64,000 nt of DNA from assembly GCA_963751455.1 (NCBI GenBank), contig CAVVUN010000003.1, forward strand, positions 224,001 through 288,000, read 5' to 3'. This stretch comes from Nitrospirota bacterium (GTDB lineage: Bacteria; Nitrospirota; UBA9217). The position numbers were made by a program, and so were the translations under genes. The notes beneath the pieces are model-generated. The model worked only from the letters and a program-made list of their open reading frames with translations, was not told the origin of the DNA and ran no database searches. Of this stretch, positions 12,222 to 57,320 are shown one piece after another. Each line of letters begins with the position of its first letter. Position 1 is the first letter of the stretch.

Positions 12222-12755
12222 AACTTCATGCCATGGAGTTCAAGGTTTTTTTTATTTTTCTGCAGCTGTATTTGACCTGCCCAAACCCCGGGCAGCTCGA
12301 GTACGACAAACATCAAACCGGGCATGCAAAGCACAAAAACCAGGGATCGTGGACTTCATGCAATGAAGTTCGGGATACTTTTCTTTTTTCTGCACCGCCG
12401 TTCACATTGCCGCGCAGACATGCCAGACTACTCGCAGTTTTATCCGTCAGTACAGCTTTCCATAGCGCTGAGCTTCGTTGCACTGCGCACGCGCATGCAC
12501 GATTTGTGGCCTGCGACTCTGCTACCGGTATGTAAAGCGCGGCCGGTGCTCACGCCCTACTCTCGCGCTGCAGACTCGAAGTCGTTGGGTGCAGGCGGGA
12601 TGCAGGGGATTCTGGAAAGGCAAATTTAAACACAACAAATTTGCACTTTGCAATTTACAATTTGCATTTTTCAATGTTCTTTCGTATCTGTGGGATGCAG
12701 GGGTGTTGGGAAAAACAAACTAAAACATAACAAATTTGCACTTTGCAATTTACAA
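12222..12755 (+). repeat. Modular non-coding repeat cluster (family A)
   Basis: 12350-12620 is the reverse complement of 21875-22135; extra partial modules at 12222-12300 and 12692-12755. Confidence 0.85.
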
Positions 12756-12861
12756 TTCCAATGTTTTTGTGATTTTATCAAACTCTGTCTTGCGTAAAAC
12801 CAGGTTTTGGTTTAATTTATAAAGCAATTCAAATTGAAAGGCAGCTCCGAAACAACAAGAC

Positions 12862-13575
12862 ATGAAAAGAATAATCTTCGCAATCACACTGGTGCTGGTC
12901 GTAAGCGTGTTACAGGGTTGTTTGCTGACCCGGCTCCACGAGACACAGAAGCAGGTATGCACAAGAAAAACAAGGCTGGAGATGACCCGTGACGGAATGG
13001 CGATTGTGTTTCATCAGCCGCTTTTGACACGCGAGGACATTATCGCAATCCTGGGAGCAAAGCCCGATGCAGTCCCGGAAACAACTGAACTGCTTTACAC
13101 CGCCCGGAATAAAAATGACGAGGCATACAGCTTTCCCGTCACATTTCAGTTCAGCAGCTCCGCCAAACAAGTTAAATTAACGAAGATGAGTATTGGAAAA
13201 AGATTCCAGGATCTTCTGTCCGAAGAATTGCTGCGTAAAATATTCGATGCGGGCTGCAGCGCAAAAAGAAACGGCCTGGGCATCGAGGTTGATCTATCCG
13301 GAGTGCCGAAGGAAAAATTGCCGAACGTGGAGGTTATAAAGACGTTACTGGGTCAGCCTGCCGCTGCCGCGGGGACCACTGCCACGTATAATTATGAACT
13401 GAATCGCACTGACATGGCGGAAATCATTATCTCTTATGATAATGAGCTGAACAGAATGACCGGCGCCGCTGTTTCGTTTCAGAGATATAGTCTTGTTTTC
13501 GATTTTACTAAAGATGTTGCCACAGGCAGGTTGAAGAGCTTTTCAGATGCAGTCAGATTGGGCTTCAAGCCATAG
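12862..13575 (+). CDS. Hypothetical lipoprotein
   Basis: Lipobox LQGC. Confidence 0.7.
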   Translation: MKRIIFAITLVLVVSVLQGCLLTRLHETQKQVCTRKTRLEMTRDGMAIVFHQPLLTREDIIAILGAKPDAVPETTELLYTARNKNDEAYSFPVTFQFSSSAKQVKLTKMSIGKRFQDLLSEELLRKIFDAGCSAKRNGLGIEVDLSGVPKEKLPNVEVIKTLLGQPAAAAGTTATYNYELNRTDMAEIIISYDNELNRMTGAAVSFQRYSLVFDFTKDVATGRLKSFSDAVRLGFKP

Positions 13576-13610
13576 GTCTTAGCCGATTTCCGTCTCCGCG
13601 TCCGACTCAC

Positions 13611-14174
13611 CTACGCTGCCGCTGCCCGCTCCTTCAGGCTGAGATACTGCTCGAGGTCCTTGACAAGTTCCGTGTACCTGTCCTGCGTGAAGTTTCTGTC
13701 GAACTCCCGCAATTGTTCTAGCATCGATGCCTGTTCCTTGTCGCTCAGATACCTCAGGGAGTGAATGAAAAAAAGTTTGTCTTCTTTTTCGATATGGGCA
13801 GGATACAATATCAGCAGCATTTCTATATAGTTTGTAATGTCATTGAGGGTAACGTACGCCTGCTCCCGGTACCTGACTACCTTTTCCAGCATTTGGACGA
13901 TATTTCTCGCGCGGTTGTGTTCGTCCATCAATTCCCCCATTACGATTCGGTCTTCCTGGGAAAGGGGTTTTTTATCAAGCTCCCTGAAAAGGATATTCTC
14001 CTCTTTGCCATGGTGAAATTCATCGATGTAGGTATTAAAGAAATCCACACCGATCCTGACCGCGCCATAATCAACATGTCCGGTTTTGATCATTCGCTGA
14101 CGCTCCCCTGCAATCACTTTCAGCATCCGCTCGATGGTCCTGTGCTCGATCATAAGGGGTCCTGTGAGTTTCAT
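13611..14174 (-). CDS. Hemerythrin HHE cation-binding protein
   Basis: LMIEH, HHGKEE..LF, LMDEH, HIEKED..F. Confidence 0.9.
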   Translation of the reverse strand: MKLTGPLMIEHRTIERMLKVIAGERQRMIKTGHVDYGAVRIGVDFFNTYIDEFHHGKEENILFRELDKKPLSQEDRIVMGELMDEHNRARNIVQMLEKVVRYREQAYVTLNDITNYIEMLLILYPAHIEKEDKLFFIHSLRYLSDKEQASMLEQLREFDRNFTQDRYTELVKDLEQYLSLKERAAAA

Positions 14175-14489
14175 AGCCGCTCCTTGCTTTTTTTAATTCC
14201 ATTTCGCAAAGATGCACACAAGCATGTTTCTTATAAGAATCGTATCATACTGTGAATCTTCATGCAGCATAATCCGCATCCAGCTCGCAACAGTATCCGT
14301 TTCTCATAGAATAGTCTTAGGAGAGTAACCAAAATCATTGCATTGAAGCAAATATTAGACTAAATTTGTCTTAGAGTTCGAATTTGTGCAAGTAGCCTTG
14401 TTTAGTTTGCGTTCGTTATTTGGGTTTGCTTCCTAAAACTTCTGCAGCCCGCAGATCGGATGAACATGCAAATTAAAAATTGTAAACTG

Positions 14490-14780
14490 AAAATTTGTTA
14501 TATTTATATTTGCCTTTCCAGAACCCCCTGCATCCCGTGAACAGGGATATGCTTTGTCATGCGCTGAAAAACATTGTGATATCGATCAGCCAAACAGCAC
14601 AGCGAAGCAGGGCCTAGCGTGAGTGCTGCGAGAGGGCGTAACGATTAGTAGATGGTGAAGGCAATCTGGCATGCTTGCATGGACCTGTGAACGGCGGTGC
14701 AGAAAAAAGAAAAGAATCTTGCCTGCGGCCAGTGCTTATGAGTGCATAGCGCGAATACAGGCTGCACTTCATGGCATGAT
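14490..14780 (-). repeat. Family A repeat, diverged copy
   Basis: Shares TGCCTTTCCAGAACCCCCTGCATCCC, TGTGAACGGCGGTGCAGAAAAAAGAAAAG and CACTTCATGGCATGA modules. Confidence 0.75.
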
Positions 14781-14822
14781 GTTTTTGGAGACGATACATA
14801 ATCTGTTTCCTGGATTTAATCA

Positions 14823-17034: not shown

Positions 17035-17225
17035 CGTAGGGCCGACGAGAGGCGACCGGACCCGACCGTGACGGGGAGTGGAAGGCGGCGATTCCCTCGT
17101 CGCTTTTCAGCCTCCGTGTCACCGCGTCGTTTTTTCTCTGACACTCTGCCACTCTTACACTGATTTTGAATTATCTGAACGCTGACAGCTTCTTCTCACA
17201 CACTTGCAACTTTAAGGAGGCTCTA

Positions 17226-17753
17226 ATGGGAAGCCTGGTCAAGGGAGATCTTGTGCGACATGAACGGTACGGTATCGGCCGTATCGAGGAAACAGCCGGT
17301 GCAGGGGCCGCCATTGAGTGTACGATCTATTTCCCGCGGCTCGATAAAAATGCAGTAACGCCGGAAGAAGAGCTTCAGGTTCTGTCCGAGGCCGAGACGA
17401 CTGCTTACGAGATGATGAAGCTCGCCGTGTACGAAATCAGGAACGAAGAGCTTCCCGGGATGGAGTTAGGGGCGCGCTGGAAGGGCGGCGAAATGGTTCT
17501 CAAGCCCGGAGATCCGAACCTGGCAACCAAGATGATTCCGATTGAAACGTTCTTCCATAAAATCGTGATGGTTCGTGATCGCCTGCGTGTCATGGAGGCC
17601 CAGATTAATGCGCATAAGGTCCTGACCGATAGTGAAAAGGTTGACTTGCAGCAATACATCACCCGCATCTACGGCTCTCTCACGTCGTTCAATGTCCTGT
17701 TCAGGGATAAGGAGAATTATTTCGTCGGGCAGAAAGACACAAGTAAAAATTAA
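17226..17753 (+). CDS. Conserved hypothetical protein
   Basis: SD AAGGAGG; SH3-like GDLVRH..YG.G start; FFHKIVMVRDRLRV, QQYITRIYGSLT.FN.LF. Confidence 0.75.
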   Translation: MGSLVKGDLVRHERYGIGRIEETAGAGAAIECTIYFPRLDKNAVTPEEELQVLSEAETTAYEMMKLAVYEIRNEELPGMELGARWKGGEMVLKPGDPNLATKMIPIETFFHKIVMVRDRLRVMEAQINAHKVLTDSEKVDLQQYITRIYGSLTSFNVLFRDKENYFVGQKDTSKN

Positions 17754-18090
17754 GAAATGCAGAATTAGGAAGTAAAAAACACCCCTTTTCATAATTCTTA
17801 CTTTTAACTTTTTACTTGATGTGGACATAATTCTTAATTTTAACTTCTTAATTTAGCTGCCGCTCTGACACTGATTTTGATTCTGACCGCTGAACGCTGA
17901 TAGCTATTTCTCTGACCCTCTGACACTTTGACACTCTGATACTGTTCCTGGTTCGCCCCCCCGTCGCCCCCCGTCGCTTCTCTGTCGTTTCCCTGTCAGC
18001 TCTACGTCAGCTCTAGCACTGCCTCCTGCCTCCAATCTGAACTTTAAGACTTATCTTGACCGGAACTACGAAAAGAGTTAGTATTTTAGT

Positions 18091-18513
18091 ATGAAGAAAC
18101 AAGTGGAGTATCTGCAGAAGTTGTTTTACGATATTTGGAGCGATTTCGGATGCGTTTACCTCGTCGTGAAGCATTCAGGCAAAACAAGGATCGGCAAACG
18201 AGGCTTTACTGAAGAAGAAAAGAAAAAGGGCATGATCCTCGTCTTTAACAACAAAACCAATAACACGTTAGACTGGGACACTGACGGAAACCTCACCTGC
18301 GTCCTCGCCTTTGGCGCGCGCAAGGAAGACATCTACGTTGATCACGATGATCTTGTCGGTGTGTTTTCGCAGGAAGCAGGGGTGCACTTTCTCAGGAGCG
18401 ATGAGAGCCAGGAACCTGCAGTATCGCCCCAAACGGATGCAGAGCATATTGATTCCAAGCAGGTTGTTTCTATGAGCAATTTCAAGAAGCGGAAGTCAAG
18501 CGAGAAACAGTGA
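18091..18513 (+). CDS. SspB-like ClpXP adaptor
   Basis: Beta-rich core (ILVF..L.W...L.C.LAFG...I.V....VF) plus acidic linker and C-terminal VVSMSNFKKR resembling the ClpX-binding motif. Confidence 0.5.
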   Translation: MKKQVEYLQKLFYDIWSDFGCVYLVVKHSGKTRIGKRGFTEEEKKKGMILVFNNKTNNTLDWDTDGNLTCVLAFGARKEDIYVDHDDLVGVFSQEAGVHFLRSDESQEPAVSPQTDAEHIDSKQVVSMSNFKKRKSSEKQ

Positions 18514-18863
18514 CGTTTTGCTTGGTCGATTTTCTAAATCCTGCATCATGAATCATGCATAGTGTATCAATTCCCATTCCGCACTCTCATTTCAAGGCTT
18601 CCTCCGCGCGAGATAAGTCTTAAATCATGCATCGTGCATCACTCCGTAATCCGCTCTAAATAGCTTTATCAAACCCTTTTAATTTGTTACATTCTATGCT
18701 ATTCTTGACCGAGATTGCGGTACAGTTATCGTCCGCTCTCTAACAGAGCCGGAAATCCCTCACGCTTGCCCACCAGCGCTTTCCTTGATTCTGAATTTGT
18801 TTATCTGATCGCTTTTTCTCTGACACTCTGACACTAATTTGACTGCGCTGACTGAATTCTGCT

Positions 18864-19004
18864 ATGGAAAAAGACAACCAAACCCCATCTGAACAGCAGG
18901 ACCATGAAAAGAGCCATGGCCTCCTGAACATCCTGAAGCTGTTATTTCTCGTCGCAGTCCTGGTAGGCGCTTGGTTTCTGCTTGATTGGCTCATAAACGG
19001 CTGA
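18864..19004 (+). CDS. Small single-TM protein (46 aa, absent from ORF track)
   Basis: MEKDNQTPSEQQDHEKSHGLLNILKLLFLVAVLVGAWFLLDWLING*. Confidence 0.55.
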   Translation: MEKDNQTPSEQQDHEKSHGLLNILKLLFLVAVLVGAWFLLDWLING

Positions 19005-19283
19005 TTCGGCAGCAACGTATAGACCAAAATGAAGAAGGAAGAAAACGATTTTCGCAAGCGGACGAAACTGAGGGTACCACGGAGAGCACATCAATTTCCC
19101 ACGAGATGGATCAGTGAAATCAAATGGATTTAATATTCAGGATTCCCTCTGCGATCTCTCTGGTTTATATTTATAGTCTGCGTTCCTCCGGAAAAAGATT
19201 AAAGAAATAAATAGGGACTTAAATAAAGGACATCCTCTGCGATCTCCGTGTTTAATTTTTTCTTAACGAAAGGACCGTTGACA

Positions 19284-19544
19284 ATGAGCGAAAACAAGGA
19301 AAACACCGTCACCAAGCGAGGGCCCTGGACCTGTGTCGAGAAAGTGAAGTCGGGAAATAAACATTTCTATGTTAATGTCATCTGCCACGCTGAACCGCCC
19401 AAAAACGCGGTCGAACTGGCAGGCGGAGTCTGCGCCTGGCCGCGCTGCAACGATAAGCCGGTTTGCTTCCGGCAGATCCGGTTCAAAGACGGGCACCGGG
19501 GCTATGAGTTTAGTTGTGCAAAGCACGGAAATATAACCAAGTAA
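19284..19544 (+). CDS. Small Cys-rich hypothetical protein
   Basis: SD AAGGA; six Cys incl. CAWPRC and CAKHG. Confidence 0.6.
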   Translation: MSENKENTVTKRGPWTCVEKVKSGNKHFYVNVICHAEPPKNAVELAGGVCAWPRCNDKPVCFRQIRFKDGHRGYEFSCAKHGNITK

Positions 19545-19677
19545 GAACGATGAAGTAAGAAATATTTCACTTCTTAATTTCTAACGTTTCTAATTTCTGC
19601 ATGGGTATATATATTTCATACTCGAAGTTTTTTTATATTTTTTAATTCTTACTTGCTCGTTACTTGAGGTATCAACA

Positions 19678-21693
19678 ATGGAAAATATCGGCGTTTTTGG
19701 ATATGTGATTATCATCATTCTTATTATGGCCGGGTGGAGGCATTATTCCATCCTCGGCATAAATAGAAATCTTTTGAGGACAAAAGAGCAGCTGAAGCAA
19801 AGCGAGTATTTTTCGAAGACCATTATCGAAACAGAGCCGGAATGTGTAAAGATAATAGATGCGGAGGGAAAACTGATTTTCATGAACAGGGCCGGTTTGG
19901 ACATGATCGAGGCTGAATCGCTCGAACAGGTCAAGGGGCAATGCGTTTGTCCCCTTGTTACCTCGGAATACCGCGACGACTTCATGAAGCTGACAAGGGA
20001 AGTATGCCGCGGCGGGTCGGGAATATTGACCTTCGAGATGGTCGGGTTGAAGGGTAGACGCCTGTGGCTCGAAACGCGCGCGGTCCCGTTCCGTAATGAA
20101 AAGGATGAAATCACGGCCTTACTCGGCATAACGCGCGACATCACGGAGAAGAAAAAAGCGGAAGAAGCAATAGCTGCCGAAAAAGAGCGTTTGGCCGTGA
20201 CCTTGAGAAGCATCGGCGACGGGGTCATCGTCACGGACATCGAGGGCAACATCACGCTCATTAATAAAGTGAGTGAACAACTCACCGGCTGGACAAACGA
20301 AGAGGCCCTGGGAAAGCCCCTTGCAGAGGTGTTTAACATCATCAACGAAACCACGAAAGAAAAATGCGAGAACCCCGTGGAAAAGGTCCTCAAATCAGGA
20401 AAGATCGTGGGTTTGGCCAACCATACTGCTCTCATACAAAAAGACGGGACCGAGATAATCATTGCAGACAGCGCCGCGCCGATTAAGGACAGACAAAGCA
20501 AGACCATCGGAATAGTTCTCGTGTTTCGGGATATCACCGCACAATACCGGATGGAACAGGAGATGCAAAAGATACAGAAGCTCGAATCACTCGGGCTGCT
20601 TGCCGGCGGACTGGCGCATGATTTCAATAACCTGCTTACCTCTATCCTGGGAAACGTCAGTCTGTTAAAGAAGCAGCTTGGTGCTGAACACAAATCGTTC
20701 AGCAGGCTGTCCGACGCGGAAAAAGCGGCTAAAATGGCTGCCGACCTGACTCAGCAGCTGCTTACGTTTGCCAAGGGCGGCGCTCCGGTAAAGAAACCCG
20801 CATCCATACTTGAGATTGCCAGCGAAGCTTGCGCGTTTGCGATGTCAGGCTCCAATATCAAATGCTTTCACACGACGCCTGAGGCCCTATGGAGTGTCGG
20901 GGTTGACCGGGGCCAGATAAGCCAGGTGTTCAATAATTTAATTATCAATTCCATCCATGCCATGCCGAACGGGGGAGCAGTTCATGTAGATTTTGAAAAC
21001 GTGGCCGTCCCGACGAATAATATTGCTTCTCTCAAAGCAGGAAATTATGTAAAAATCACATTCCGCGATGAAGGAAAAGGCATACCGGAAAAAATATTGG
21101 CTAAAATATTTGAGCCGTATTTCACGACAAAGGAGGGCGGGACCGGGTTGGGTCTTGCCACGGTTTTATCCATTATCAATCGGCATGAAGGAAATATTTC
21201 CGTTGAATCAAAAGCGGGAGCCGGCACAATCTTCACATTATACATTCCCGCATTAGGCGACGCCCTGTCCCCCGCTTCCCCGGAACAGAAGACGGCTCAG
21301 ACCGGCCAGGGAAGAATCCTTATCATGGATGATGAGGAATTGGTAAGAAATGTTGCCGGCTATATTTTAAACGATCTTGGTTATGAGGTGGCATATGCCA
21401 GGGACGGCAAAGAGGCCATAGAAGCATACCTGAAAGCAAAGGAAGAACAAAAATCTTTCGATGTCGTCATCATGGATTTGACCATTCCCGGCGGCATGGG
21501 AGGCAAGGACGCCATCAAGAACCTTCAAGCAATGGCTCCGGATGCAAAGGTCATCGTATCCAGCGGCTATTCAAGGGACCCCATAATGGCTGACTATAAA
21601 AATTACGGTTTCTGCGGAGTGGTCTGCAAACCGTATGAGGCCGGTGAGATCAGCGAGGAGATTGCAAAGGTGATGAAAGGAAAAACAAGTTAG
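19678..21693 (+). CDS. Hybrid PAS-PAS histidine kinase with receiver
   Basis: Two PAS/PAC, AHDFNNLL H-box, NLIINS, FTTK..GTGLGL, C-terminal ILIMDDE receiver. Confidence 0.95.
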   Translation: MENIGVFGYVIIIILIMAGWRHYSILGINRNLLRTKEQLKQSEYFSKTIIETEPECVKIIDAEGKLIFMNRAGLDMIEAESLEQVKGQCVCPLVTSEYRDDFMKLTREVCRGGSGILTFEMVGLKGRRLWLETRAVPFRNEKDEITALLGITRDITEKKKAEEAIAAEKERLAVTLRSIGDGVIVTDIEGNITLINKVSEQLTGWTNEEALGKPLAEVFNIINETTKEKCENPVEKVLKSGKIVGLANHTALIQKDGTEIIIADSAAPIKDRQSKTIGIVLVFRDITAQYRMEQEMQKIQKLESLGLLAGGLAHDFNNLLTSILGNVSLLKKQLGAEHKSFSRLSDAEKAAKMAADLTQQLLTFAKGGAPVKKPASILEIASEACAFAMSGSNIKCFHTTPEALWSVGVDRGQISQVFNNLIINSIHAMPNGGAVHVDFENVAVPTNNIASLKAGNYVKITFRDEGKGIPEKILAKIFEPYFTTKEGGTGLGLATVLSIINRHEGNISVESKAGAGTIFTLYIPALGDALSPASPEQKTAQTGQGRILIMDDEELVRNVAGYILNDLGYEVAYARDGKEAIEAYLKAKEEQKSFDVVIMDLTIPGGMGGKDAIKNLQAMAPDAKVIVSSGYSRDPIMADYKNYGFCGVVCKPYEAGEISEEIAKVMKGKTS

Positions 21694-21869
21694 AAGGCGG
21701 AATTAAGAAGTAAAAGATCATTTTCATACCAAGTAAGAATTAAGAAATTGCGAATTAGGGTTATCAAATCCCAAAAAACTGCTGCCACCACGAGGCAGGA
21801 ATCTTTATATGTCGCTTGATGACTTTTTGGCACTGTCTCAGGCCTATTGGTTCGTTGGTTTTTATCTTT

Positions 21870-22135
21870 TTGCTTTTCCAACCCCCCTGCATCCCGCCTG
21901 CACCCAACGACTTCGAGTGTGCAGCGCGAGAGTAGGGCGTGAGCAGCGTCCACGCTTTACATGACCAGGATTCGCGTCGGGAAATCACGAAGCGTGCATG
22001 CGCGTGCGAAGCTCAGCGCAAAGGACAGCAATGCTAAACAAGTAAAGCTGAAGATACTCTGTCATGTCTGCGCGGCGATGAGAACGGCGATGCAGAAATA
22101 AACAAGGATCTTGCACTTCATGGCATGAAGTCCAC
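21870..22135 (-). repeat. Family A repeat, full copy
   Basis: CCCCTGCATCCCGCCTGCACCCAACGACTTCGAGT...CATGTCTGCGCGGC...ACTTCATGGCATGAAGT. Confidence 0.85.
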
Positions 22136-22225
22136 ATCTTTGTTTTTTTAGGCGTTCATCCGTTCAAATGCAAAATTAAAAACAGCTGCAGATGCTTTAG
22201 ATTTGAAATTATGAAGTATGCTGAC

Positions 22226-22732
22226 ATGAAATTAGACTTGGCCCTTAAGGGGTTTTTCCTCGCAGCAGCCGTATTGCTGTTTCCGCTGTTTGCATCTGCA
22301 GCCGGCACGGAAGCATTTCTTGGAACCTGGGAATATCGGCAGCGGGCCGGAAAGGGGTATGACTCCGAGGGAGAAAAGCTTGAACTCCGGAGCAAAGGAG
22401 GAACGCTTACCGGGGTTTATTTCGGATTGGAAAGAGAGGGAGAGCATGGTCTTTTTTACACCGCCGTGGAGATAAAAGACCTCAAGGTGGAACAGGAGCG
22501 GATTTTTTTTACAATTCCGGACCGGCACTTGTTTTCGGACCGGCCTGAAAGCCTGAAAGAGGCGAAGCTGAATGAATCGAAATCGAGCGGTTATACGCGC
22601 GATGAATTGAAAATGCAGGGGCAGTTGAAAGACGGGAGCTTAATGGTTGCCTGCAGTTCTGATTTAAATACCTGTCCGGACAAGGTGATGGAATTCCGGA
22701 AGAGCAAATGGGATAAGAAAACTGAACGCTGA
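22226..22732 (+). CDS. Secreted hypothetical protein
   Basis: Signal peptide ending ASA; FLGTW beta-rich start. Confidence 0.65.
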   Translation: MKLDLALKGFFLAAAVLLFPLFASAAGTEAFLGTWEYRQRAGKGYDSEGEKLELRSKGGTLTGVYFGLEREGEHGLFYTAVEIKDLKVEQERIFFTIPDRHLFSDRPESLKEAKLNESKSSGYTRDELKMQGQLKDGSLMVACSSDLNTCPDKVMEFRKSKWDKKTER

Positions 22733-22844
22733 GCTTCTTCTCTGACACTCTGACACTGAATTGCTTATCTGGTAGCTGAACGCTGATAGCTTCTTCTCTG
22801 ACACTCTGACACGCTGACACTTTCTCGCCGTGGAGGTGAAACGC

Positions 22845-27989: not shown

Positions 27990-28118
27990 GGGGGACTTAG
28001 CTTTTAATCAGTCGTCGCTGTTCGGTCTCCACGTCACACAGTCGATACTCTGTCAGATTCGGGTAGGATATAGACCTTATAAAGACCTGACCCTGAGCGG
28101 TTTGATTAATAAAATAAT

Positions 28119-28862: not shown

Positions 28863-29067
28863 ACAGGAACTCTCCTACCCCTAGACGTGGTTGGCGCGTT
28901 TGTGCGAGACGGGTTTGAATCTTTGGAACTTCTCAGGGTCAGGTCTTTAATGTTTGACTTTGTCTTTTTCCTCTGATATCCTCAGTTTTGAATAATTATT
29001 CAATTCAACATACTCACAATGATAAACTCTGGAGGCGCCCATGGAATACGATAAAGACAAGCCCCCT

Positions 29068-29998
29068 AGGGTCAGGTCTTTAATGTTTGACTTTGCTTTT
29101 TGACTCTGATATTCTCGTTGCATGGCACGACCTCTCCGCATAGAATACGCTGGCGCTGTTTACCACATTACCTCCCGAGGCAACGAAGGAAAGCCTGTTT
29201 TCAGGAGCGACCAGGACCGGATCAATTTCCTGAACACGCTTCAGCATGTCAATAAGCGCTACAATTGGATCTGCCATGCCTACTGCCTGATGGATAATCA
29301 CTATCATCTTTTGGTAGAAACGCCCGACGGCAATCTCGCCATAGGCATGCGCCAGTTAAACGGGGTATATACGCAGCTCTTCAACAAACTCCATGGCAGG
29401 GCTGGTCATCTGTTCCAGGGAAGATATAAGGCGATTCTTATTCAAAAAGACAGTCATCTCCTTGAAGTATGCAGGTATGTCGTGTTAAATCCCGTACGAG
29501 CAAAGATGGTAAATATACCGGAGGCATGGAAGTGGAGCAGCTACAAGGCAACTACCGGGAGGGAATCACCGTATCCCTGCCTTACCATAGACTGGGTCCT
29601 GGGTCAGTTCAGCGGAAAAAGGGCCATTGCGGAGAAAAAATACAAGGACTTCGTTCAATGGGGGATCGGTCAGAAAACGATATGGACTGAAGTGCGCGGC
29701 CAGGCAATCCTGGGCGAGGAAGAATTCGCGAATAAAATGGTCGATCATCTCAAAAAACACAAAAACGTGCCCGAGATACCGCGAAGCCAGCGCTACGCTA
29801 ACAGGCCGGGACTCGATAAGATCTTTTCTGCAAAGGTTCTTAAGGACAGGCTAAAGCGAGATCGGAAGATCGCCGAGGCAGTCGAGAAACACGGATATAC
29901 CCAGCGGGCAATTGCCAAACATCTCGATATGCACTACTCTTATATAAGTCAGATTTTGAGTGAGCGTGAGCAAACATAAATATTAAAGACCTGACCCT
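29068..29998 (+). mobile_element. RAYT/Y1 transposase unit bounded by 17-bp inverted repeats
   Basis: AGGGTCAGGTCTTTAAT (29068) and ATTAAAGACCTGACCCT (29982-29998). Confidence 0.75.
29122..29979 (+). CDS. REP-associated tyrosine transposase (Y1 HUH) with C-terminal HTH
   Basis: MARPLRIE..YHITSRGN, AYCLMDNHYHLL (HUH), GHLFQGRYK, RYVVLNPVRA, WSSY. Confidence 0.92.
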   Translation: MARPLRIEYAGAVYHITSRGNEGKPVFRSDQDRINFLNTLQHVNKRYNWICHAYCLMDNHYHLLVETPDGNLAIGMRQLNGVYTQLFNKLHGRAGHLFQGRYKAILIQKDSHLLEVCRYVVLNPVRAKMVNIPEAWKWSSYKATTGRESPYPCLTIDWVLGQFSGKRAIAEKKYKDFVQWGIGQKTIWTEVRGQAILGEEEFANKMVDHLKKHKNVPEIPRSQRYANRPGLDKIFSAKVLKDRLKRDRKIAEAVEKHGYTQRAIAKHLDMHYSYISQILSEREQT

Positions 29999-47097: not shown

Positions 47098-50000
47098 ATG
47101 TCTACTTCTTTCAACAGAAATCTCGTATTAGTAGTGGTTATGCTTTCAGCCGCGTCAGCGCTAATGAGCTGCAGCGGTAACAAAGATAGCGGTCGAGCAA
47201 CATCAGAAACAACCGAAAGTGAATCAAAGGTAATAGCACCCGATGGGCTTAATACATCCAAGCTCATTATCAGCTCGCCAGGTTCCGAACAAATAACACC
47301 ATCAGAATCCGGAAGCTTTACCTCTTCAAGAAATGGAGTATCTGGTTTTAGCACCGCGATTGCCACAGATGTCACAGGAAGTATCGTCATGTTTTCAGCT
47401 GTTACAAATTCAATCATCCCACTCGACGTATATTCGACTGCGGCAACTATTGTGGTTAGTTGTCTTAACAGCTTTGGATTTCAGGGAGAATCATACGAGG
47501 AGCAGATGCCGATACTCCGGACGATTCCCGAGGTTCGGGCGCTAGGTGATTATATCAACAATAATGTAAAATCGATGAGTGAAAAACTATATTCAATCGA
47601 TAATGAAAAATTTATGGCCCTTGTATCTACTGCTGTTACCGCAGCGATACACACCATGCAATACCCCACCAGTTCTGATCAATTTTTATTGCCAGACTGG
47701 GCACAGCCCTCGGTTCCCGTAAATAACGTTCTCACAAGCCGAGCAGCAAGCAAGTTCCAAAGACCAACCTCGGAGGTAACTGAATATTCATGGTGGCCAG
47801 AAGGTACAGATAGTGAATGGGCAATGCTGACTTTCGATTTTGAGCAGGAGAAGGCAAACTTTTTACAGGTGATGATCCACAATTATTGGTTACGAGATGT
47901 ATATGTGTATCTTGTACCATCCAGAGCATTTAGTGCATCGAACATACACAGCGGTCACTATCTTGGCAGTATAGATCCTGCACCTTCCGCTCTGACTTTG
48001 GACGGGATTAGATCAATGTTCGATGGTGACTTATATTTAAATTCTACAACCTTTGTCGATATTCCGCTCAGTGAATTCGAACTAGATAACGAGGCATTAC
48101 TGGCTTTCGTTGGTCCTGGTACAAAAAATAGAGGGTATTTGAGCTGGGATACGAATCGAGATATATTGTTGCGACTAATGATTAGATCTGTTTTAGTAAG
48201 AGTAATTGCTCCTAGTTTCTCATTAGCTTCTAAATTGCCGGCAAACGAAATTGGTAAAGCGCTCGCCGACGACATTGATCTAGTTGATAAAATATTCGAT
48301 GCCGTTGAGGCAGGTGAAACAGGTAAGAAAGCCATAACTGCTTTTCGAGAAGGCAGATACGTTGATGGGTTCTTCAATCTCGTCTCAATTGCAAATAGCT
48401 TTGTTTTTAACGACCCGGGCGATGGTCGAACGAATAGGGCATTAAGGATTTATAGACAGCTGCAGGGAATATCAATTGTCGGCGCGAGGTCCTCTGCAGA
48501 AAATTATATGCTGAACCTTTGCAGTCGTTTAGCCCTGATCGACGGCTTTAATTCTTCATGGAATCTTGTAGGATTTGGTACGACGATTAATAGAGCATCG
48601 GAGTTGGCAATTTATTCGATAACCCGCAAACCTTTAGTCTGCGATACCCCGTCGACCATTACGGTTCCAAGGACTTCGCTTACCGGTAACTATACAGTCA
48701 GCTGGAGCGGTTCGGATACTACTGGAGTAATCTACAAACTGGAAGAATCATCAACTTCGGATTTCTTAAGTTCATCCGAAGTTTACAGCAGCACAGCAAC
48801 CAGTGCGATCATTTTAGGTAAAAAGGAAGGAATTTTCTTTTACAGAGTTAAAGCAACAAAAAACGGTTATGTTAACAGCGAGTGGCGAAAGGGCGATAAT
48901 GGGTGTACTGTAGCTATTGGTACCACCTGGTATCGTGATTCAGACGGCGATGGTTACGGTAATCCCAGCATCGGCGTGTCCTCTGCCACAAAGCCATCTG
49001 GATACGTTGCTGACAACACGGATTGTAACGATGCTTCCTCTAGTATTCATCCCGGCGCTACTGACGTCTGCGAGAATACTGTTGACGAAGACTGCAGCGG
49101 AAGTGCTGCTGTCTGTCCTACCACCTGGTATCGTGATTCTGACGGCGATGGTTACGGTAATCCCAGCATCGGCGTGTCCTCTGCCACGAAACCATCTGGC
49201 TACGTTGCTGACAACACGGATTGTAACGATGCTTCCTCTAGTATTCATCCCGGCGCTACTGACGTCTGCGAGAATACCGTTGACGAAGACTGCAGCGGAA
49301 GTGCTGCTATCTGTCCTACCACCTGGTATCGTGATTCTGACGGCGATGGTTACGGTAATCCCAGCATCGGCGTGTCATCTGCCACGAAGCCATCCGGCTA
49401 CGTAGCTGACAAAAGCGACTGTGACGATTCCTCCTCTAATATCCACACGGGTGCCACTGACAGTTGTGATAACAATGTGGATGAGGACTGCAGCGGAAGC
49501 GCGGCGACATGTCCTACTACTGAATGGTATCGTGATGCAGACGGCGATAGTTACGGCAATCCAAACATCGGCGTGTCCTCTGCCACGAAACCATCTGGCT
49601 ACGTTGCTGACAACACGGATTGTAACGATGCTTCCTCTAGTATTCATCCCGGCGCTACTGACGTCTGCGAGAATACCGTTGACGAAGACTGCAGCGGAAG
49701 TGCTGCTGTCTGTCCTACCACCTGGTATCGTGATTCTGACGGCGATGGTTACGGTAATCCCAGCATCGGCGTGTCCTCTGCCACAAAGCCATCTGGCTAT
49801 GTTGCTGACAACACGGATTGTAACGATGCTTCCTCTAGTATTCATCCCGGCGCTACTGACGTCTGCGAGAATACTGTTGACGAAGACTGCAGCGGAAGTG
49901 CTGCTGTCTGTCCTACCACCTGGTATCGTGATTCTGACGGCGATGGTTACGGTAATCCCAGCATCGGCGTGTCCTCTGCCACAAAGCCATCTGGCTATGT

Positions 50001-51051
50001 TGCTGACAACACGGATTGTAACGATGCTTCCTCTAGTATTCATCCCGGCGCTACTGACGTCTGCGAGAATACTGTTGACGAAGACTGCAGCGGAAGTGCT
50101 GCTGTCTGTCCTACCACCTGGTATCGTGATTCTGACGGCGATGGTTACGGTAATCCAAACATCGGCATGTCCTCTGCCACGAAACCATCTGGTTACGTAG
50201 CCGACAATACCGACTGTGACGACGTGTTCTCTAATATTCATCCCGGTGCTAATGATGTCTGTGACGATGGATTGGATGCCGACTGCAGCGGAAGCGACAC
50301 TATCTGTCCTAAAACTTGGTATCGTGATGCAGACGGCGACAGCTATGGCGATCCCAGCATCAGTAAGTCCTCCGTCGCCAAGCCATCTGGTTATGTATCT
50401 GACAAGACCGACTGTAACGATTCCTCCTCTAATATCCACCCGGATGCCACTGACAGTTGTGATAACAATGTGGATGAGGACTGCAGCGGAAGCGCGGCGA
50501 CATGTCCTACTACTGAATGGTACCGTGATGCAGACGGCGATGGCTATGGTGATCCTTATATAGGAATGTCCTCAGCCACTAAACCATCTGGTTACGTTGC
50601 CGACAATACCGACTGTGACGACGTGTTCTCTAATATTCATCCCGGTGCCAATGATGTCTGTGGCGATGGATTGGATGCTGACTGCAGCGGAAGCGACGCT
50701 TGTCCGCCTCCTGACGATCATGGCGATACATGCACCTCAGCTACGGCAATCGCTCGAAACCAATGTAATGAATTAGGCAATATCGGGTCACAAGATGATG
50801 ACGATTATTTTAAAGTATCTCTACCGTCGTCGGGAAATTGGACTGTATATACAGAGGGAAGCACAGATACGTACGGAACGATATTTAATTCGAATTGTAC
50901 TTCGTTAAAATCTAATGATGATACCGGAGATGGCTCTAATTTCAAAATCACTTACTCCGTTACATCGGCTGGCTCTTACTACATCCGAGTTCGTGGAAAA
51001 AACGACACTACGGGAGGATATTCCTTATTTTCATCTTTCTCATCTAACTAG
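47098..51051 (+). CDS. Large surface lipoprotein: FN3 + nine MopE-like metal-binding repeats + PPC-like domain
   Basis: Lipobox LMSC; YTVSW..YKLEES..FYRVKA FN3; WYRD.DGDGYG...DC.D...IHPGA...D.DC repeats; DDDYFK..DTYG..NDD.G.G.NF.I PPC. Confidence 0.85.
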   Translation: MSTSFNRNLVLVVVMLSAASALMSCSGNKDSGRATSETTESESKVIAPDGLNTSKLIISSPGSEQITPSESGSFTSSRNGVSGFSTAIATDVTGSIVMFSAVTNSIIPLDVYSTAATIVVSCLNSFGFQGESYEEQMPILRTIPEVRALGDYINNNVKSMSEKLYSIDNEKFMALVSTAVTAAIHTMQYPTSSDQFLLPDWAQPSVPVNNVLTSRAASKFQRPTSEVTEYSWWPEGTDSEWAMLTFDFEQEKANFLQVMIHNYWLRDVYVYLVPSRAFSASNIHSGHYLGSIDPAPSALTLDGIRSMFDGDLYLNSTTFVDIPLSEFELDNEALLAFVGPGTKNRGYLSWDTNRDILLRLMIRSVLVRVIAPSFSLASKLPANEIGKALADDIDLVDKIFDAVEAGETGKKAITAFREGRYVDGFFNLVSIANSFVFNDPGDGRTNRALRIYRQLQGISIVGARSSAENYMLNLCSRLALIDGFNSSWNLVGFGTTINRASELAIYSITRKPLVCDTPSTITVPRTSLTGNYTVSWSGSDTTGVIYKLEESSTSDFLSSSEVYSSTATSAIILGKKEGIFFYRVKATKNGYVNSEWRKGDNGCTVAIGTTWYRDSDGDGYGNPSIGVSSATKPSGYVADNTDCNDASSSIHPGATDVCENTVDEDCSGSAAVCPTTWYRDSDGDGYGNPSIGVSSATKPSGYVADNTDCNDASSSIHPGATDVCENTVDEDCSGSAAICPTTWYRDSDGDGYGNPSIGVSSATKPSGYVADKSDCDDSSSNIHTGATDSCDNNVDEDCSGSAATCPTTEWYRDADGDSYGNPNIGVSSATKPSGYVADNTDCNDASSSIHPGATDVCENTVDEDCSGSAAVCPTTWYRDSDGDGYGNPSIGVSSATKPSGYVADNTDCNDASSSIHPGATDVCENTVDEDCSGSAAVCPTTWYRDSDGDGYGNPSIGVSSATKPSGYVADNTDCNDASSSIHPGATDVCENTVDEDCSGSAAVCPTTWYRDSDGDGYGNPNIGMSSATKPSGYVADNTDCDDVFSNIHPGANDVCDDGLDADCSGSDTICPKTWYRDADGDSYGDPSISKSSVAKPSGYVSDKTDCNDSSSNIHPDATDSCDNNVDEDCSGSAATCPTTEWYRDADGDGYGDPYIGMSSATKPSGYVADNTDCDDVFSNIHPGANDVCGDGLDADCSGSDACPPPDDHGDTCTSATAIARNQCNELGNIGSQDDDDYFKVSLPSSGNWTVYTEGSTDTYGTIFNSNCTSLKSNDDTGDGSNFKITYSVTSAGSYYIRVRGKNDTTGGYSLFSSFSSN
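48928..50700 (+). repeat. Nine intragenic ~198-bp tandem repeats
   Basis: TGGTAYCGTGAT recurs every 198-201 bp; several units near-identical in DNA. Confidence 0.9.
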
Positions 51052-51119: not shown

Positions 51120-52637
51120 CCTTGTAGTTGCATAAACATTTCTTGAAAATATGCAGAAACCTCTGGAAACAGGCTTCATTATTGGATATAGTGCTCCTGC
51201 GATATCATTATTTCACTCAAGCAGGAGGCCACTGAAAGTGAAGTCCAGTAAAGCACAGGTTCTAAGCCGCGTTCACAAAATACCGGAACTGAAGTTCGAG
51301 GATCAACAGCTCACTTCCTACGCGGGCCTTGCTATCATTCAGGCATTCTTCACGAAGCTGAATCTGAAAGCCCGCTTGAAAAGCTGCTTTGATCATCTAC
51401 CGTCGAGCGCCATCTTCGGCAATCACGTCATTACGCTCGTGCTGATCGTGCATCTGATGCTGGGTTATCGGAAACTCCGCGACATCGAATACTATCAGGA
51501 CGACCTTATGGCGCTTCGTCTTCTGGGCCTCCGAAAAATGCCGGACGTTTCCACGATCAGCCGGGCATTGATGACGGTCGACGCAAAGGACATTTTGAAT
51601 CTTCGTCGGTTCTGCCGGGAAATGTCGCTCTCCCGCATACAGGGTTTGAAGCTTCGTCGCGTGACGCTTGATTTCGACGGCTCTGTGCTCTCGACCTCCC
51701 GATGGGCTGAGGGTGCCGCCGTAGGCTTCAACAAAAAGAAAAAAGGGCAGAGAAGCTATTATCCGCTTTTCTGCATGATCGCTCAGTTGGGCATGGTCCT
51801 TGACGTCCTGCCCCGTTCGGGTAACGTACATGATTCCAACGGCGCCCGGGCGTTCATCCTTGCGTGCATCGAACAGGTGCGTGCAACCTGTTCGGATATC
51901 GTCATCGAAGTGCGCATGGACAGCGCTTTCTTCAGCGATGAAATCGTCGGCGCGCTGGAGCGCGACGGAATTGAGTTCACCATCTCGGTCCCCTTTGAGC
52001 GGTTCTCCGAACTCAAACACATGATCGAAGCCAAAAAACGCTGGAGGCGTTACGATTCCGTTGTTTCCTATTTCGACACACCCTGGAAGCCGAAAAGCTG
52101 GGACAGCCGGTTCCGCTTTCTTTTTATTCGTCAAAAAGCCAAAAAGCAGTCAAAAGAGCCGGTGCAGCTTGATATGTTCACGCCGCACGAATACGGGTTT
52201 GACTTCAAGGTGATCGTTACAAACAAAACAACGACGGTGAAGAAAGTCCTGAACTTCCATCAGGGCCGCGGTTCTCAGGAAAACATCCTTGGAGAGCTAA
52301 AGTCCCAGTGCAATATGGATTACGTGGCTGTGAGAAGATTGCACGGAAATCAGCTATACATGATGTCGGCGATCATCTCGCACAATCTCCTGAAGGAACT
52401 TCACATGGTCGCGCATGAACCCGACCGGGGCACCACCGAAAAACGGGCCGCTCTTTGGGAGTTCACGGAGCCCAATACCCTGCGAAGAACACTTATACAG
52501 CGTGCCGGCCGCCTGACACAGCCCGGCGGCAAGCTAACTCTGACAATGAACGCCAATCCACGAGTCAAAAAGGGGTTGTTGCATTATCTCGACCGATTGC
52601 AACGGGCCGCATAGCGATTTTTTATGCAACGTTAAGG
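51120..52637 (+). mobile_element. Second IS1380-family element
   Basis: IRs CCTTGTAGTTGCATAAA / TTTATGCAACGTTAAGG; TTTA duplicated on both sides. Confidence 0.85.
51238..52614 (+). CDS. IS1380-family DDE transposase
   Basis: LTSYAGL, TLDFDGS, G.RSYYPL, RMDSAFF, GRG.QEN..GELK, LRRTLIQRAGRL. Confidence 0.9.
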   Translation: MKSSKAQVLSRVHKIPELKFEDQQLTSYAGLAIIQAFFTKLNLKARLKSCFDHLPSSAIFGNHVITLVLIVHLMLGYRKLRDIEYYQDDLMALRLLGLRKMPDVSTISRALMTVDAKDILNLRRFCREMSLSRIQGLKLRRVTLDFDGSVLSTSRWAEGAAVGFNKKKKGQRSYYPLFCMIAQLGMVLDVLPRSGNVHDSNGARAFILACIEQVRATCSDIVIEVRMDSAFFSDEIVGALERDGIEFTISVPFERFSELKHMIEAKKRWRRYDSVVSYFDTPWKPKSWDSRFRFLFIRQKAKKQSKEPVQLDMFTPHEYGFDFKVIVTNKTTTVKKVLNFHQGRGSQENILGELKSQCNMDYVAVRRLHGNQLYMMSAIISHNLLKELHMVAHEPDRGTTEKRAALWEFTEPNTLRRTLIQRAGRLTQPGGKLTLTMNANPRVKKGLLHYLDRLQRAA

Positions 52638-53971: not shown

Positions 53972-56900
53972 TTGAAATTCATTCCACTGCTGTTGTTTGG
54001 TCTGCTTTCTGTTCTCCCTGTCCATGCGGCTGAAATGTCGGATCTCGAGGTCCGGACCGCGCACGATTGGGTGACTAATTCCTTCGAAATCCCGGGACAA
54101 GAGCCGTTTTCATTCAACTACAACGGGAGGACCTCCTCTCGATTTCTGGGTTCGTGGAGGGTCTCGCAATCGAAAACCACGCTCGACTCCCGGCGCGTCC
54201 GGCACGACATTCGGTATCGGGATGCGGCAAGCGGCCTGGAAATCCTGGTCGAAGCTGTCGAATATAGAGACTTCGCCGCCGTCGAGTGGGTGCTCAGGTT
54301 CAGGAATACCGGCTCAAAAGACACTTCGATCCTCCGTAATATCTGGCCGATCGACACATCGATGGGCGCTGCCGCGGGCCCGGGAGACTATCTTCTCGGC
54401 TATGCTGCCGGAAGCGCCGCCAAAGAGAGCGACTTTCAGCCGAAAAACGCGCTTATCGCGCCCGGTAGTTCAATAACCTTGAAGCCGTTCGGCGGACGTT
54501 CCTCGGGCGGCGGAACCACGCGCGGACCGCAAGAGGGCGTCCTTCCGTTCTTCAACATCGCATACCCGGGCGGAGACGGGTTCGCCGCAGCTATCGGGTG
54601 GACAGGACAGTGGAACGCAACATTCTCGCGTGCCGCTGGTCCCGCCCTCCGGGTGAATGCCGGAATGGAACGTGTGAATCTGCGGCTGCATCCGGGAGAG
54701 GAAATACGCACTCCCTCCGTGCTTTTGCTATTCTGGACCGGCAACGACAGCACGCGCGGCCGGACATTCCTCCGCCGCCTGCTGCTGGCGCACTATACTC
54801 CCCGGACAGGAGGCGAACTGCAAGCCGCTCCCGTGGCTGCTTCACCGAACGGAACCATCCCGATGGAAGCAGTGAGTGAAACAAACATGAAGCAGGCGAT
54901 TGCAAATATCGCGGCTCATCCGCTGCCGCTCGACACGTGGTGGGTGGATGCCGGGTGGTATGCCGGGAAAAATATTCCCTGGTGCGACCCGGCCCATCTG
55001 GGCTCCGCGGATTTCAACGGCGATGGCACGCTTGATCTCCTTTGCAGCACCGAGGACGGTAAACATCTCGTCGCCCTTTCCGGGGGCGACGGCAGCTTTG
55101 CAGCAATACAACCGTGGCCGGCTGCAGGCGCCTGGTGCGATCCGGCGCATCTTTCCACGGGTGACTTCAACGCTGACGGCAGAGCCGACCTGATCTGCAG
55201 CGGCGAGGACGGCATGCATGCTATTGCCTTCTCGGAGGGCAACGGCGCGTTTTCGTCGCCGGGGTGGTGGCAGCAGGCGTGGTGCGAACCGCGGAGCCTG
55301 GACATGGCCGACTTCAACGGCGATCGCAAGCTTGACCTCATTTGCAACGCGGACGGCGGCATACACTTCGTCGCCCTTTCCAAGGGCGACGGCAGCTTTG
55401 CGCCAATGCCGGCGTGGCCTGCCGGCGGCGCATGGTGCGATCCAAAGCATCTCGCGATGGGTGACTTCAACGGCGACAATAAAGCCGACCTGATCTGCAG
55501 CGCTGAAGACGGCAGGCACATTATTGCCTTCTCGGACGGAAACGGCGCGTTTTCCTCGCCGGGTTGGTGGCAGCAGGCGTGGTGCGAACCGCGGAGCCTG
55601 GACATGGCCGACTTCAACGGCGATCGCAAGCTTGACCTCATTTGCAATGCCGACGACGGCAAACACCTCGTCGCCCTTTCTCAAGGCGACGGCAGCTTTG
55701 CGCCGATGCCGGCGTGGCCTGCGAGGAGCGCCTGGTGCGATCCAAAGCATCTCGCGACGGGTGACTTTAACGGCGACCATAAAACAGACCTGATCTGCAG
55801 CGCCGAAGACGGCAGGCACATTATTGCCTTCTCGGAAGGCAACGGCTCGTTTTCCTCTTCGGAATGGTCGCATGACGCCTGGTGCGATCCGGCACATCTC
55901 AGAATAGGCGATTACAGCGGAGCGGGAAAAACCGGATTAAGTTGCCACTCGGACGACGGAAGGCACATCGTGGCATTCTCGAACGGGCTCGGCGGCTTTA
56001 TTTCGCCGGGCTGGTGGACCAACTCGAACTGGGCTGAAAATGTCGGGAACTTCGATCCCGACCCGGTCAGGTTCCCGCATGGGCTGAAACCCGTGGCAGA
56101 CGCAGCGCACGCAAAAGGGCTCAAGTTCCTTTTATGGTTTGAGCCGGAGCGCGCCATGCCGGGCACCTGGATGTACGACAATCATTTCGACTGGCTTATC
56201 CCTCCTCCCGGCAACTTGCCCGATGACGTAAACTACTTGTACAGGGACGGATTTCACCTGGTAAATTTAGGACTGCCTGAGGCGCGTGAGCTGCTGCGCC
56301 GGAAGGTGTCGGCCATGATCGCCGACATAGGGATCGACATCTATCGTCACGATTTCAATATGTATCCGCTCTATTACTGGCGCAGTCAGGATGAGCGCGA
56401 CCGGCAGGGCATGACGGAAATACGGTATGTCACGGGACCCTATGCGTTTCTCGACGGGCTCAGGCAGGATCATCCGGACCTCGTGATCGACAACTGCGCC
56501 TCGGGAGGGCGCAGGATTGATTTCGAAATGCTGCGGAGAGGGTTTGTGCTGACGAGGAGCGACTACTTGTGGGAGCCTGCGGGGCAGCAGAACCATACGT
56601 ACGGGCTTTCCGAATGGGTACCCATATCAGGAATCGGAGCGGCGAGCAACGACGCATACAGCGTGCGGAGCGGAATGGGCTACCATGGAGTCTTCGCATT
56701 CGACTACTTCTCCGTTGATCCCTCGTATTGGCTGCAAAGCAACAGGGTCTTGACCGAGATGACTTCCATGCGGGACCTTTTCCTGGGGGATTTCACGCCC
56801 CTTACGCCGACGGACAATGACAATTCCCGCTGCATTGCCTGGCAGTTCCATCGGCAGGATTCGGGCCGCGGATTGGTGCAGGCATTTCGGCGTGAGGGAT

Positions 56901-57094
56901 GCCTGACAGGAGCGATGACGGTCCGTTTGACCGGGTTGTTGCGATCGCGTGAGTACCAGGTAATCGATCTGGATGATGACATGCCGCGGCAGATGAGCGG
57001 CGACGAACTGATGGACCAGGGTCTGACGATCCCGTTTCCGTTGACAGGCGGGACCGCGGCCAGGGTCATTACTTTCACGCTGCAGAAACACTAG
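53972..57094 (+). CDS. Secreted GH36 alpha-galactosidase-like enzyme with inserted FG-GAP propeller
   Basis: LPFFN, AIGWTGQW, WVDAGWY, RFPHGLKPVAD..H.KG.KFLLWFEPER, YRHDFN, DNCASGGRRID, RSDY; seven DFNGD repeats. Confidence 0.88.
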   Translation: MKFIPLLLFGLLSVLPVHAAEMSDLEVRTAHDWVTNSFEIPGQEPFSFNYNGRTSSRFLGSWRVSQSKTTLDSRRVRHDIRYRDAASGLEILVEAVEYRDFAAVEWVLRFRNTGSKDTSILRNIWPIDTSMGAAAGPGDYLLGYAAGSAAKESDFQPKNALIAPGSSITLKPFGGRSSGGGTTRGPQEGVLPFFNIAYPGGDGFAAAIGWTGQWNATFSRAAGPALRVNAGMERVNLRLHPGEEIRTPSVLLLFWTGNDSTRGRTFLRRLLLAHYTPRTGGELQAAPVAASPNGTIPMEAVSETNMKQAIANIAAHPLPLDTWWVDAGWYAGKNIPWCDPAHLGSADFNGDGTLDLLCSTEDGKHLVALSGGDGSFAAIQPWPAAGAWCDPAHLSTGDFNADGRADLICSGEDGMHAIAFSEGNGAFSSPGWWQQAWCEPRSLDMADFNGDRKLDLICNADGGIHFVALSKGDGSFAPMPAWPAGGAWCDPKHLAMGDFNGDNKADLICSAEDGRHIIAFSDGNGAFSSPGWWQQAWCEPRSLDMADFNGDRKLDLICNADDGKHLVALSQGDGSFAPMPAWPARSAWCDPKHLATGDFNGDHKTDLICSAEDGRHIIAFSEGNGSFSSSEWSHDAWCDPAHLRIGDYSGAGKTGLSCHSDDGRHIVAFSNGLGGFISPGWWTNSNWAENVGNFDPDPVRFPHGLKPVADAAHAKGLKFLLWFEPERAMPGTWMYDNHFDWLIPPPGNLPDDVNYLYRDGFHLVNLGLPEARELLRRKVSAMIADIGIDIYRHDFNMYPLYYWRSQDERDRQGMTEIRYVTGPYAFLDGLRQDHPDLVIDNCASGGRRIDFEMLRRGFVLTRSDYLWEPAGQQNHTYGLSEWVPISGIGAASNDAYSVRSGMGYHGVFAFDYFSVDPSYWLQSNRVLTEMTSMRDLFLGDFTPLTPTDNDNSRCIAWQFHRQDSGRGLVQAFRREGCLTGAMTVRLTGLLRSREYQVIDLDDDMPRQMSGDELMDQGLTIPFPLTGGTAARVITFTLQKH

Positions 57095-57189
57095 GTCAAA
57101 ATAAATTAAGAAGTGAAAATTAGGAAGTAAAAAACTGATTCGTAATTCTTCCTTAGTTCCTTCTCCTTGTTTTTAGCTTGATCTTGTTA

Positions 57190-57320
57190 TTGCCTTTCCA
57201 GAACCCCTGCATCCCGCCTGCACCCAACGACTTCCATTGCTGATTTCGGATTGCGGATTTAGCACAGCTGTCGCAGCCGAGCTGCCCGGGGGGTTGGGAA
57301 AACCTCAAGCCACAGCAGAT
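57190..57320 (-). repeat. Family A repeat, partial modules
   Basis: TGCCTTTCCAGAACCCCTGCATCCCGCCTGCACCCAACGACTTC and CGAGCTGCCCGGGG..TTGGG (cf. 12281-12300). Confidence 0.75.

Follow-up and report, generated by a model that had tools for sequence, protein, structure and literature searches.

A non-coding Nitrospirota repeat whose one-strand fold is under selection, with micro-elements nested in it and ISL3-type carriage in related genomes

A stretch of 64,000 nt from a Nitrospirota bacterium (GTDB lineage UBA9217; assembly GCA_963751455.1, contig CAVVUN010000003.1, positions 224,001 to 288,000), called the window in what follows, contains several copies of a repeat made of a linker palindrome, H, and a long rod-like hairpin, L. 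The repeat is non-coding and non-autonomous, its fold is under selection on one strand, micro-elements are nested in it, and in related genomes it is transported in shells of the ISL3 type. The fold is probably taken up by single-stranded DNA rather than by RNA. In the explanation preferred here, to which a rough probability of 0.55 is given, an unlinked enzyme similar to TnpA-REP (REP, repetitive extragenic palindromic) reads this fold on single-stranded DNA, and ISL3 ends have captured doublets of the rods.

The genome (5.72 Mb, 15 contigs) was searched with a profile made from 69 insert-free L cores, which gave 36 loci, 30 of them full-length, against none in one shuffled genome. A two-end pattern matched once in the window and not at all in 100 shuffles. 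The copies and blocks reported in a first-pass annotation of the window were found in place, with full copies at 12342-12621 and 21875-22140, a copy with a divergent centre at 14512-14785, and fragments at 12223-12334, 12691-12716 and 57192-57295, all of them intergenic. Two of the blocks that had been counted as the element's own (12553-12595 and 21897-21939) proved to be an inserted 43-nt hairpin, named M1, so that the insert-free unit in this genome measures about 245 bp and consists of the palindromic hairpin H, a T-tract, the rod L and a short leader rich in G. Two paired arms of about 35 nt each, two loops of about 30-38 nt and a central hairpin make up the rod, whose length is 164-177 nt in subtypes A and B (32 and 12 cores) and 180-187 nt in subtype D (25 cores). 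Copies 1 and 2 of the window belong to subtype A, and copy 3 to subtype B, with a different centre. Pieces of a sibling rod, K, lie beside them, the one at 12280-12334 having its folding strand opposite to that of L. The features of the window are the following:

12223-12265, no strand: remnant of the linker palindrome H (12223-12239), T-tract and truncated rod start
12280-12334, plus strand: sibling rod K, internally deleted, with its start at 12280-12299 and an end remnant at 12318-12334 (by-eye comparison with three full K rods of the genome)
12342-12381, no strand: linker hairpin H of copy 1, core palindrome 12353-12369, with an A-run and a T-run on its sides
12384-12621, minus strand (predicted folding strand): L rod of copy 1, subtype A, with T-tract 12384-12389, rod 12390-12605 and leader 12606-12621
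12473-12482, no strand: duplication of about 10 nt at the central tip of copy 1, found likewise in several other copies
12553-12595, minus strand: M1 (43 nt) inserted in an arm of copy 1 without target duplication
12638-12760, no strand: heptamer repeats (12638-12675 and 12733-12760) and a second L leader remnant (12691-12716)
14512-14708, plus strand: L rod of copy 3, subtype B, an insert-free rod, with its GNA tip at 14602-14608
14537-14542 and 14687-14692: halves of the tandem G-A motif of the subtype-B rod
14712-14785, no strand: linker hairpin H of copy 3, interrupted by an M1 insert
14722-14764, plus strand: M1 variant inserted in H of copy 3
21875-22100, plus strand: L rod of copy 2, subtype A, with its GNA tip at 22006-22012
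21897-21939, plus strand: M1 in copy 2, at a site identical to that of copy 1
22100-22140, no strand: linker hairpin H of copy 2, core palindrome 22115-22131
57192-57234, plus strand: fragment with L leader and rod start (57192-57216), then a 5' piece of M1 (57217-57234)
57262-57295, minus strand: fragment with the start of sibling rod K

When 10 insert-free type-A copies from this genome were compared in pairs, identity averaged 0.89 and 0.92 for the arms, 0.91 for the centre, and 0.57 and 0.72 for the two loops. Since arms and centre are far more alike than the loops, the alternation of conserved blocks and variable spacers described at first pass is real. The loops keep their length and drift in sequence, and the central hairpin is conserved inside each subtype. 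What had been described as module shuffling turned out to be mostly nested insertion of micro-elements, together with the three centre subtypes and an alternation of L with sibling rods. No codon signal was found in any of the six frames in the three L subtypes (synonymous share 0.22-0.33), in agreement with the earlier view that the copies hold no credible conserved open reading frame (ORF), and a coding remnant as the origin of L was rejected on this ground. The edges of this genome's L copies fade raggedly. An IS91-like boundary was also considered for L and only ragged ends were found; the search for an IS91 transposase gave no match anywhere, with its controls likewise unmatched.

The fold of L is under selection, as the first pass had suspected from the blocks, and the stems covary. 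In 21 type-A rods from relatives, changes on both sides were found at 8/35 pairs (24 cells), with none of 500 shuffles as high and all slid controls lower too, and in 23 type-D rods at 6/41 pairs (12 cells), reached in 1 and 0 of 500 shuffles. Single stem positions switch their pair among the 69 rods, for example G-C in 36, C-G in 14 and T-A in 4. These counts are not to be read as probabilities, since the rods are related, the structures were taken from the same alignments as the counts, and the search patterns had already set the terminal pairs as well as one side of the G-A motif.

The strand can be told from the mismatches. In the variable stem columns of the 69 rods, 54 A-C mismatches outnumber 14 G-T ones on the strand as written, so the wobbles belong to the other strand. 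On this folding strand, a motif directly repeated in both arms forms a tandem G-A/A-G pair in 66/69 and 69/69 rods. The folding strand was also the more stable one in 31/35 rods with DNA parameters and in 28/35 with RNA parameters; both sets favour the same strand, and therefore energy picks the strand and not the molecule. A whole window copy folded with its insert gave a weak signal (z −0.7 to −1.6). As to the molecule, the tips favour DNA, being GNA triloops closed by C-G in 40/42 L-A, 8/12 L-B, 19/21 J and 17/18 N rods when counted with a free loop pattern, J and N being two further sibling rods. The sequence GCGNAGC is described, in the cited section, as an extra-stable DNA mini-hairpin with much less stable RNA counterparts (PMC13037366).

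A fold at the RNA level, either as a repeated structured RNA, as the first pass had suggested, or as an element of mRNA stability or termination with H as a two-way terminator, is considered quite improbable. In favour of this role, RNA often has G-U wobbles and tandem G-A pairs, the z-scores of the RNA energies are strong and strand-biased, and many copies sit just 3' of gene ends. H with its T-run scored as terminator-like as well, but at chance level (1 found, 0.7 expected). The tips are DNA-type triloops instead of GNRA or UUCG tetraloops, orthologous sites have gained and lost copies, and inserts in the stems are tolerated. No Rfam family matched the window at the gathering score, nor did any match three loci containing L, K and J at E 0.5; a microRNA match on a related rod was below threshold (29.6 of 86 bits) and was rejected. 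Orientation relative to neighbouring transcription was unbiased (sense/antisense 7:6 and 9:9 for L with two anchors, 33:35 for M1), which disfavours an RNA role because a cis-acting RNA would be expected to show a bias. The folding energies by themselves still allow RNA.

M1 is a separate hairpin of 43 nt (range 40-46 nt). At one site of L, some copies carry it, in one or the other orientation, and others lack it. In this genome, 90 un-nested copies and 141 starts were found, compared with 2 in each of two shuffles. Five positions covary, for example with C-G in 78 and T-A in 9 copies or C-G in 76 and G-C in 11, one stem position accepts both G-T and A-C, and the foot is an unpaired CCTG or CTTG start. 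Insertion takes place without target duplication, with a G directly before the element in 72/90 copies, and the targets are by inspection almost solely other repeats, M1 included. Inserts were often seen in heptamer/octamer tandem repeats. M1 occurs in 17/36 other genomes of the Nitrospirota family and in 0/114 other Nitrospirota searched. Among viral contigs, there were 2 M1 matches (L273, L274), both in one 38-kb phage-like contig, and no candidate enzyme stood by M1 among the ORFs listed at one of the two loci.

Two other inserts were found. M2, a second micro-element of about 58 nt with 53 matches, inserts in M1 and in itself, and M4, of 80-95 nt, lies exactly in the tandem G-A motif of L (metagenome copies L170, L177, L179, L198 and L246). 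Tandem runs of four to five M2 copies were observed at many sites of this genome, such as C1:390421 and C15:1354548.

L alternates in inverted orientation with the sibling rods K, J and N. K and L share ancestry, since a K profile matches 9/32, 7/12 and 12/25 L rods and gave 1 match in shuffles. J, N and a group of betaproteobacterial rods have a common centre (J to N 4/14, betaproteobacterial to N 8/14). No sequence link of L to J or N was detected, so the kinship of L with these rods rests on architecture and co-location. In genomes G072 and G069 the rods form near-identical tandem units of about 427 bp. The element was found in 20/61 genomes of one Nitrospirota family (21 pattern matches, one of them a chance coding match), and a reversed control pattern had no match in the 61. 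In an all-genome scan, 33/80 loci among the matches listed scored with the profile, all titled Nitrospirota, and the other 47 were dropped as chance or coding matches. Viral contigs gave 4 pattern matches for L, none scored by the profile, and 0 for the J/N centre; plasmids and phages gave no L match. The betaproteobacterial rods stand as an inverted doublet in one genome and are present in 6/101 genomes of that family. GNA tips were seen in 15/15 of them (L322:1380-1920, L329-L336, L325-L327), and Ralstonia megaplasmids also contain matches to their terminal hairpin. The literature searched gave no description of L, K, J, N or M1, and the text of the supplement files covered (12/15 and 12/19) gave no match or unrelated ones.

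Mobility was observed in relatives. In genus g17, rods fill four orthologous gaps in one genome and are missing from them in two to four others, and at one of the four gaps a second genome holds a different L in the opposite orientation. The unit amplified in this genus is a doublet, L+K, which is 604-710 bp long and has inverted ends and AT-rich duplications of 8 bp, that is, a MITE (miniature inverted-repeat transposable element), and its ends match those of 1378-bp autonomous ISL3 elements in two genomes of another genus at 29/32 and 22/25 nt. No transposase was found within the repeat, and no ISL3 transposase in G070 and G071 themselves. The filled and empty sites and these shells bear out the earlier proposal of a non-autonomous element. 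A blind scan found inverted ends plus an 8-bp duplication at 9/161 copies, 8 of them ISL3-type in two end families, and at none in two mismatched-flank controls. An ISL3-type shell with a K rod and an IS110-like transposase gene was observed at L296:4010-6148, with the 8-bp duplication intact.

These shells could mean that the rods are simply the interior of ISL3-derived MITEs, with the window copies as old MITEs that have lost their ends, the fold as an aid to transposition or a limit on harm, and no second enzyme. Such an account is the chief rival and is regarded as rather unlikely. Its signature (matching inverted ends, 8-bp duplications) is the sole mobilising one shown, one of the two ISL3 end types carries L+K and the other L+J, and ISL3-like left ends lie at fixed distances of about 60, 91, 100 and 115-118 nt upstream of L in several genera, with an eroded one at the same spacing here. 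A stem-loop MITE driven by ISL3 with 8-nt duplications is already known from Microcystis, according to the cited section of PMC11448079. In this genome, however, 0/23 copies tested have ends matching ISL3 together with an 8-bp duplication, and both ends are kept at 9/161 copies overall. The earlier statement that the repeat has no terminal inverted repeats thus holds for transposon-type ends of the window copies and not for the L core, which is itself a single long imperfect inverted repeat. The genome's own ISL3 has different ends, which occur once, and autonomous ISL3 elements hold no rod. Tandem H-L-N arrays and the betaproteobacterial doublets are, by eye, without such ends, and M1 inserts without duplication. 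Finally, a DDE transposase acting on double strands leaves the one-strand wobbles, G-A pairs and GNA tips unexplained.

In the preferred reading, the rod would fold as single-stranded DNA on one strand and the fold would be recognised by an unlinked enzyme acting on single-stranded DNA, for which an HUH or TnpA-REP-like protein would be the first guess. Its action would produce ragged, duplication-free copies and tandem arrays. ISL3 ends would have captured rod doublets by insertion in their A/T-rich feet, and the window copies would either have lost these shells or have moved without them. M1 may move by a peel-and-paste-like route into the hairpins of other repeats.

The following findings weigh against this reading. 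Besides the limits on the covariation counts given above, strand asymmetry with RNA parameters is as strong as with DNA ones (median z −3.7 against −2.0), the tips of type-D rods are variable loops and not GNA, both tips of window copy 1 are mutated, and M1 has no folding-energy excess. The replication-strand bias relative to GC skew is weak and not significant for L (11:22 and 16:19) and M1 (54:67), and does not point the way expected for insertion in the lagging template; for M2 it is 19:38 (p 0.016). In addition, ISL3-like left ends precede L at 19 loci of relatives and, eroded, at 2 here, and for this reason ISL3 may drive more of the spread than assumed. The other points concern the enzyme. 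No recurrent mobile gene cluster (transposase, nuclease or integrase) was found by 69 L loci and 121 further metagenome loci, 41 of the latter with short flanks. Among 58 loci of Y1 transposases, 33 in this genome and 25 in 8 relatives, none has rods on both sides. G069, which is 89% complete, has arrays and no Y1 match, and the 6 GIY-YIG genes of this genome are all at least 11 kb from any L locus.

The rest of the search for a partner gave the same picture. At 2/58 Y1 loci a rod piece lies nearby, in one case an L end about 830 nt away and in the other an N rod beyond the inverted ends of the Y1 element itself. The 20 stretches around clusters in G070 and G068 hold no recurrent mobile-element proteins. 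Among the genes listed for this genome, the 6 reverse transcriptases (with flanks like those of group II introns), the integrases and the IS110 elements have no flanking rods, and the RAYT-like genes listed have short repeats of their own. Copies flanking an HUH or reverse-transcriptase gene, for which the first pass had suggested looking, were absent among the copies examined. An autonomous long form was found neither among the 121 metagenome loci nor, among the matches listed, by bracket matching in this genome.

An integron-type integrase gene stands directly downstream of one L copy, at a distance of 107 nt, and is followed by a gene that we take from its motifs to encode a KAP-type NTPase (L061:1470-3020). 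This neighbourhood, and the dense clusters of G072 and G069 with varied small genes in between, would suit rods at which a tyrosine recombinase acts on single strands, as at attC sites, so that neighbouring genes are shuffled. The one-strand fold with bulges does resemble attC, as presented in the cited part of PMC2727003, but the rods measure 164-187 nt against 57-142 nt for attC and have no ends that fit the heptanucleotide R-box consensus. Moreover, their orientations are mixed instead of forming direct-repeat cassette arrays, most neighbours are housekeeping genes, and an integrase is nearby at 1/69 loci, which makes recombination sites of this kind very unlikely indeed.

A wider form of the preferred reading would see a superfamily of single-stranded-DNA rods of 150-190 nt across phyla, with GNA tips and tandem G-A pairs, plus a nesting micro-transposon of 43 nt, all served by an unlinked and so far unrecognised enzyme acting on single-stranded DNA, with ISL3 hitch-hiking; this is held to be unlikely. 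The repeat stretches the idea of REP sequences and bacterial interspersed mosaic elements (BIMEs) to hairpins several times larger, and it shows selfish DNA in layers, with an ISL3 shell around a 170-nt rod that itself contains a 43-nt element. M1 is close to the lower size limit of a mobile element. Since it is tiny, its fold is defined by covariation, and its filled and empty targets can be matched within a single genome, it offers a ready substrate for finding a new single-stranded-DNA transposase or nuclease. For annotation, the repeats account for spurious short ORFs and for false candidates of non-coding RNA in the Nitrospirota family concerned.

Other features of the window were observed in passing. 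A RAYT-like Y1 transposase gene (29122-29979) with a C-terminal helix-turn-helix lies at 28926-29997, flanked by short inverted repeats of its own, of which a further solo copy is found at 28083-28093; the gene has more than ten relatives in the genome. Several families of intergenic heptamer/octamer tandem repeats occur at 7804-7837, 12638-12760, 17131-22821 and 34821-62619. Two DDE transposase genes of the Pfam DDE_Tnp_1_4 type stand at 35107-36666 and 51151-52614. Two large repeat proteins are encoded, one with nine putative metal-binding repeats of 198-bp period (47098-51051) and one with FG-GAP repeats fused to a GH36 domain (53972-57094).

The comparison with known systems is made with the sections of the cited papers that describe them. 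Like integron attC sites, one strand of L folds and unpaired features tell the strands apart (PMC2727003); unlike them, L is too long, has no R boxes and forms no cassette arrays. The Ssn NTS/SRM repeats are also strand-specific hairpins of single-stranded DNA, intergenic and clustered in mosaics, whereas SRMs measure 20-50 nt and flank a small GIY-YIG gene, and by eye no such gene is near L (PMC11893778). The multicopy intergenic sequences of Geobacter resemble the present mosaics in their clusters of palindromic and heptamer repeats in common intergenic gaps (PMC2700814, PMC2996986), and six motifs of L-family elements were not found in the text of the Geobacter supplement (12/15 and 12/19 files). 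ISL3-derived MITEs, such as the 187-nt one of Microcystis aeruginosa, agree with the relatives' units in having ends that match autonomous ISL3, 8-bp AT-rich duplications and no transposase (PMC11448079), but the shells of the relatives measure 550-710 bp and contain two covarying rods, and the window copies have neither ends nor duplications. The repeat is MITE cargo in relatives, though not demonstrably so in this genome.

REP, BIME and REPIN elements with TnpA-REP (RAYT) share extragenic, multicopy, imperfect hairpins read on one strand (PMC3333891, PMC3116915, PMC6006769), as well as inverted doublets, two kinds of linker and tandem arrays, here as K-H-L, L-K, L-J and L-N. In BIME-2 arrays and REPINs the same alternating inverted layout with tandem units is described (PMC3333891, PMC3116915). 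Conserved length with compensatory changes and use as a target by other elements are likewise common to both. The L unit, however, has 165-190 nt against 21-65 for REP, M1 (40-46 nt) alone falling within that range, and it contains large internal loops and a central module. Where REP has the 5' foot GT(A/G)G, the foot is CC(C/T)G in L, K and J and CCTG or CTTG in M1, and no repeat-flanked tnpA-REP gene stands among the 58 Y1 loci. In size, tag and partner gene the repeat lies outside REP/BIME, but it works like a REP/BIME mosaic.

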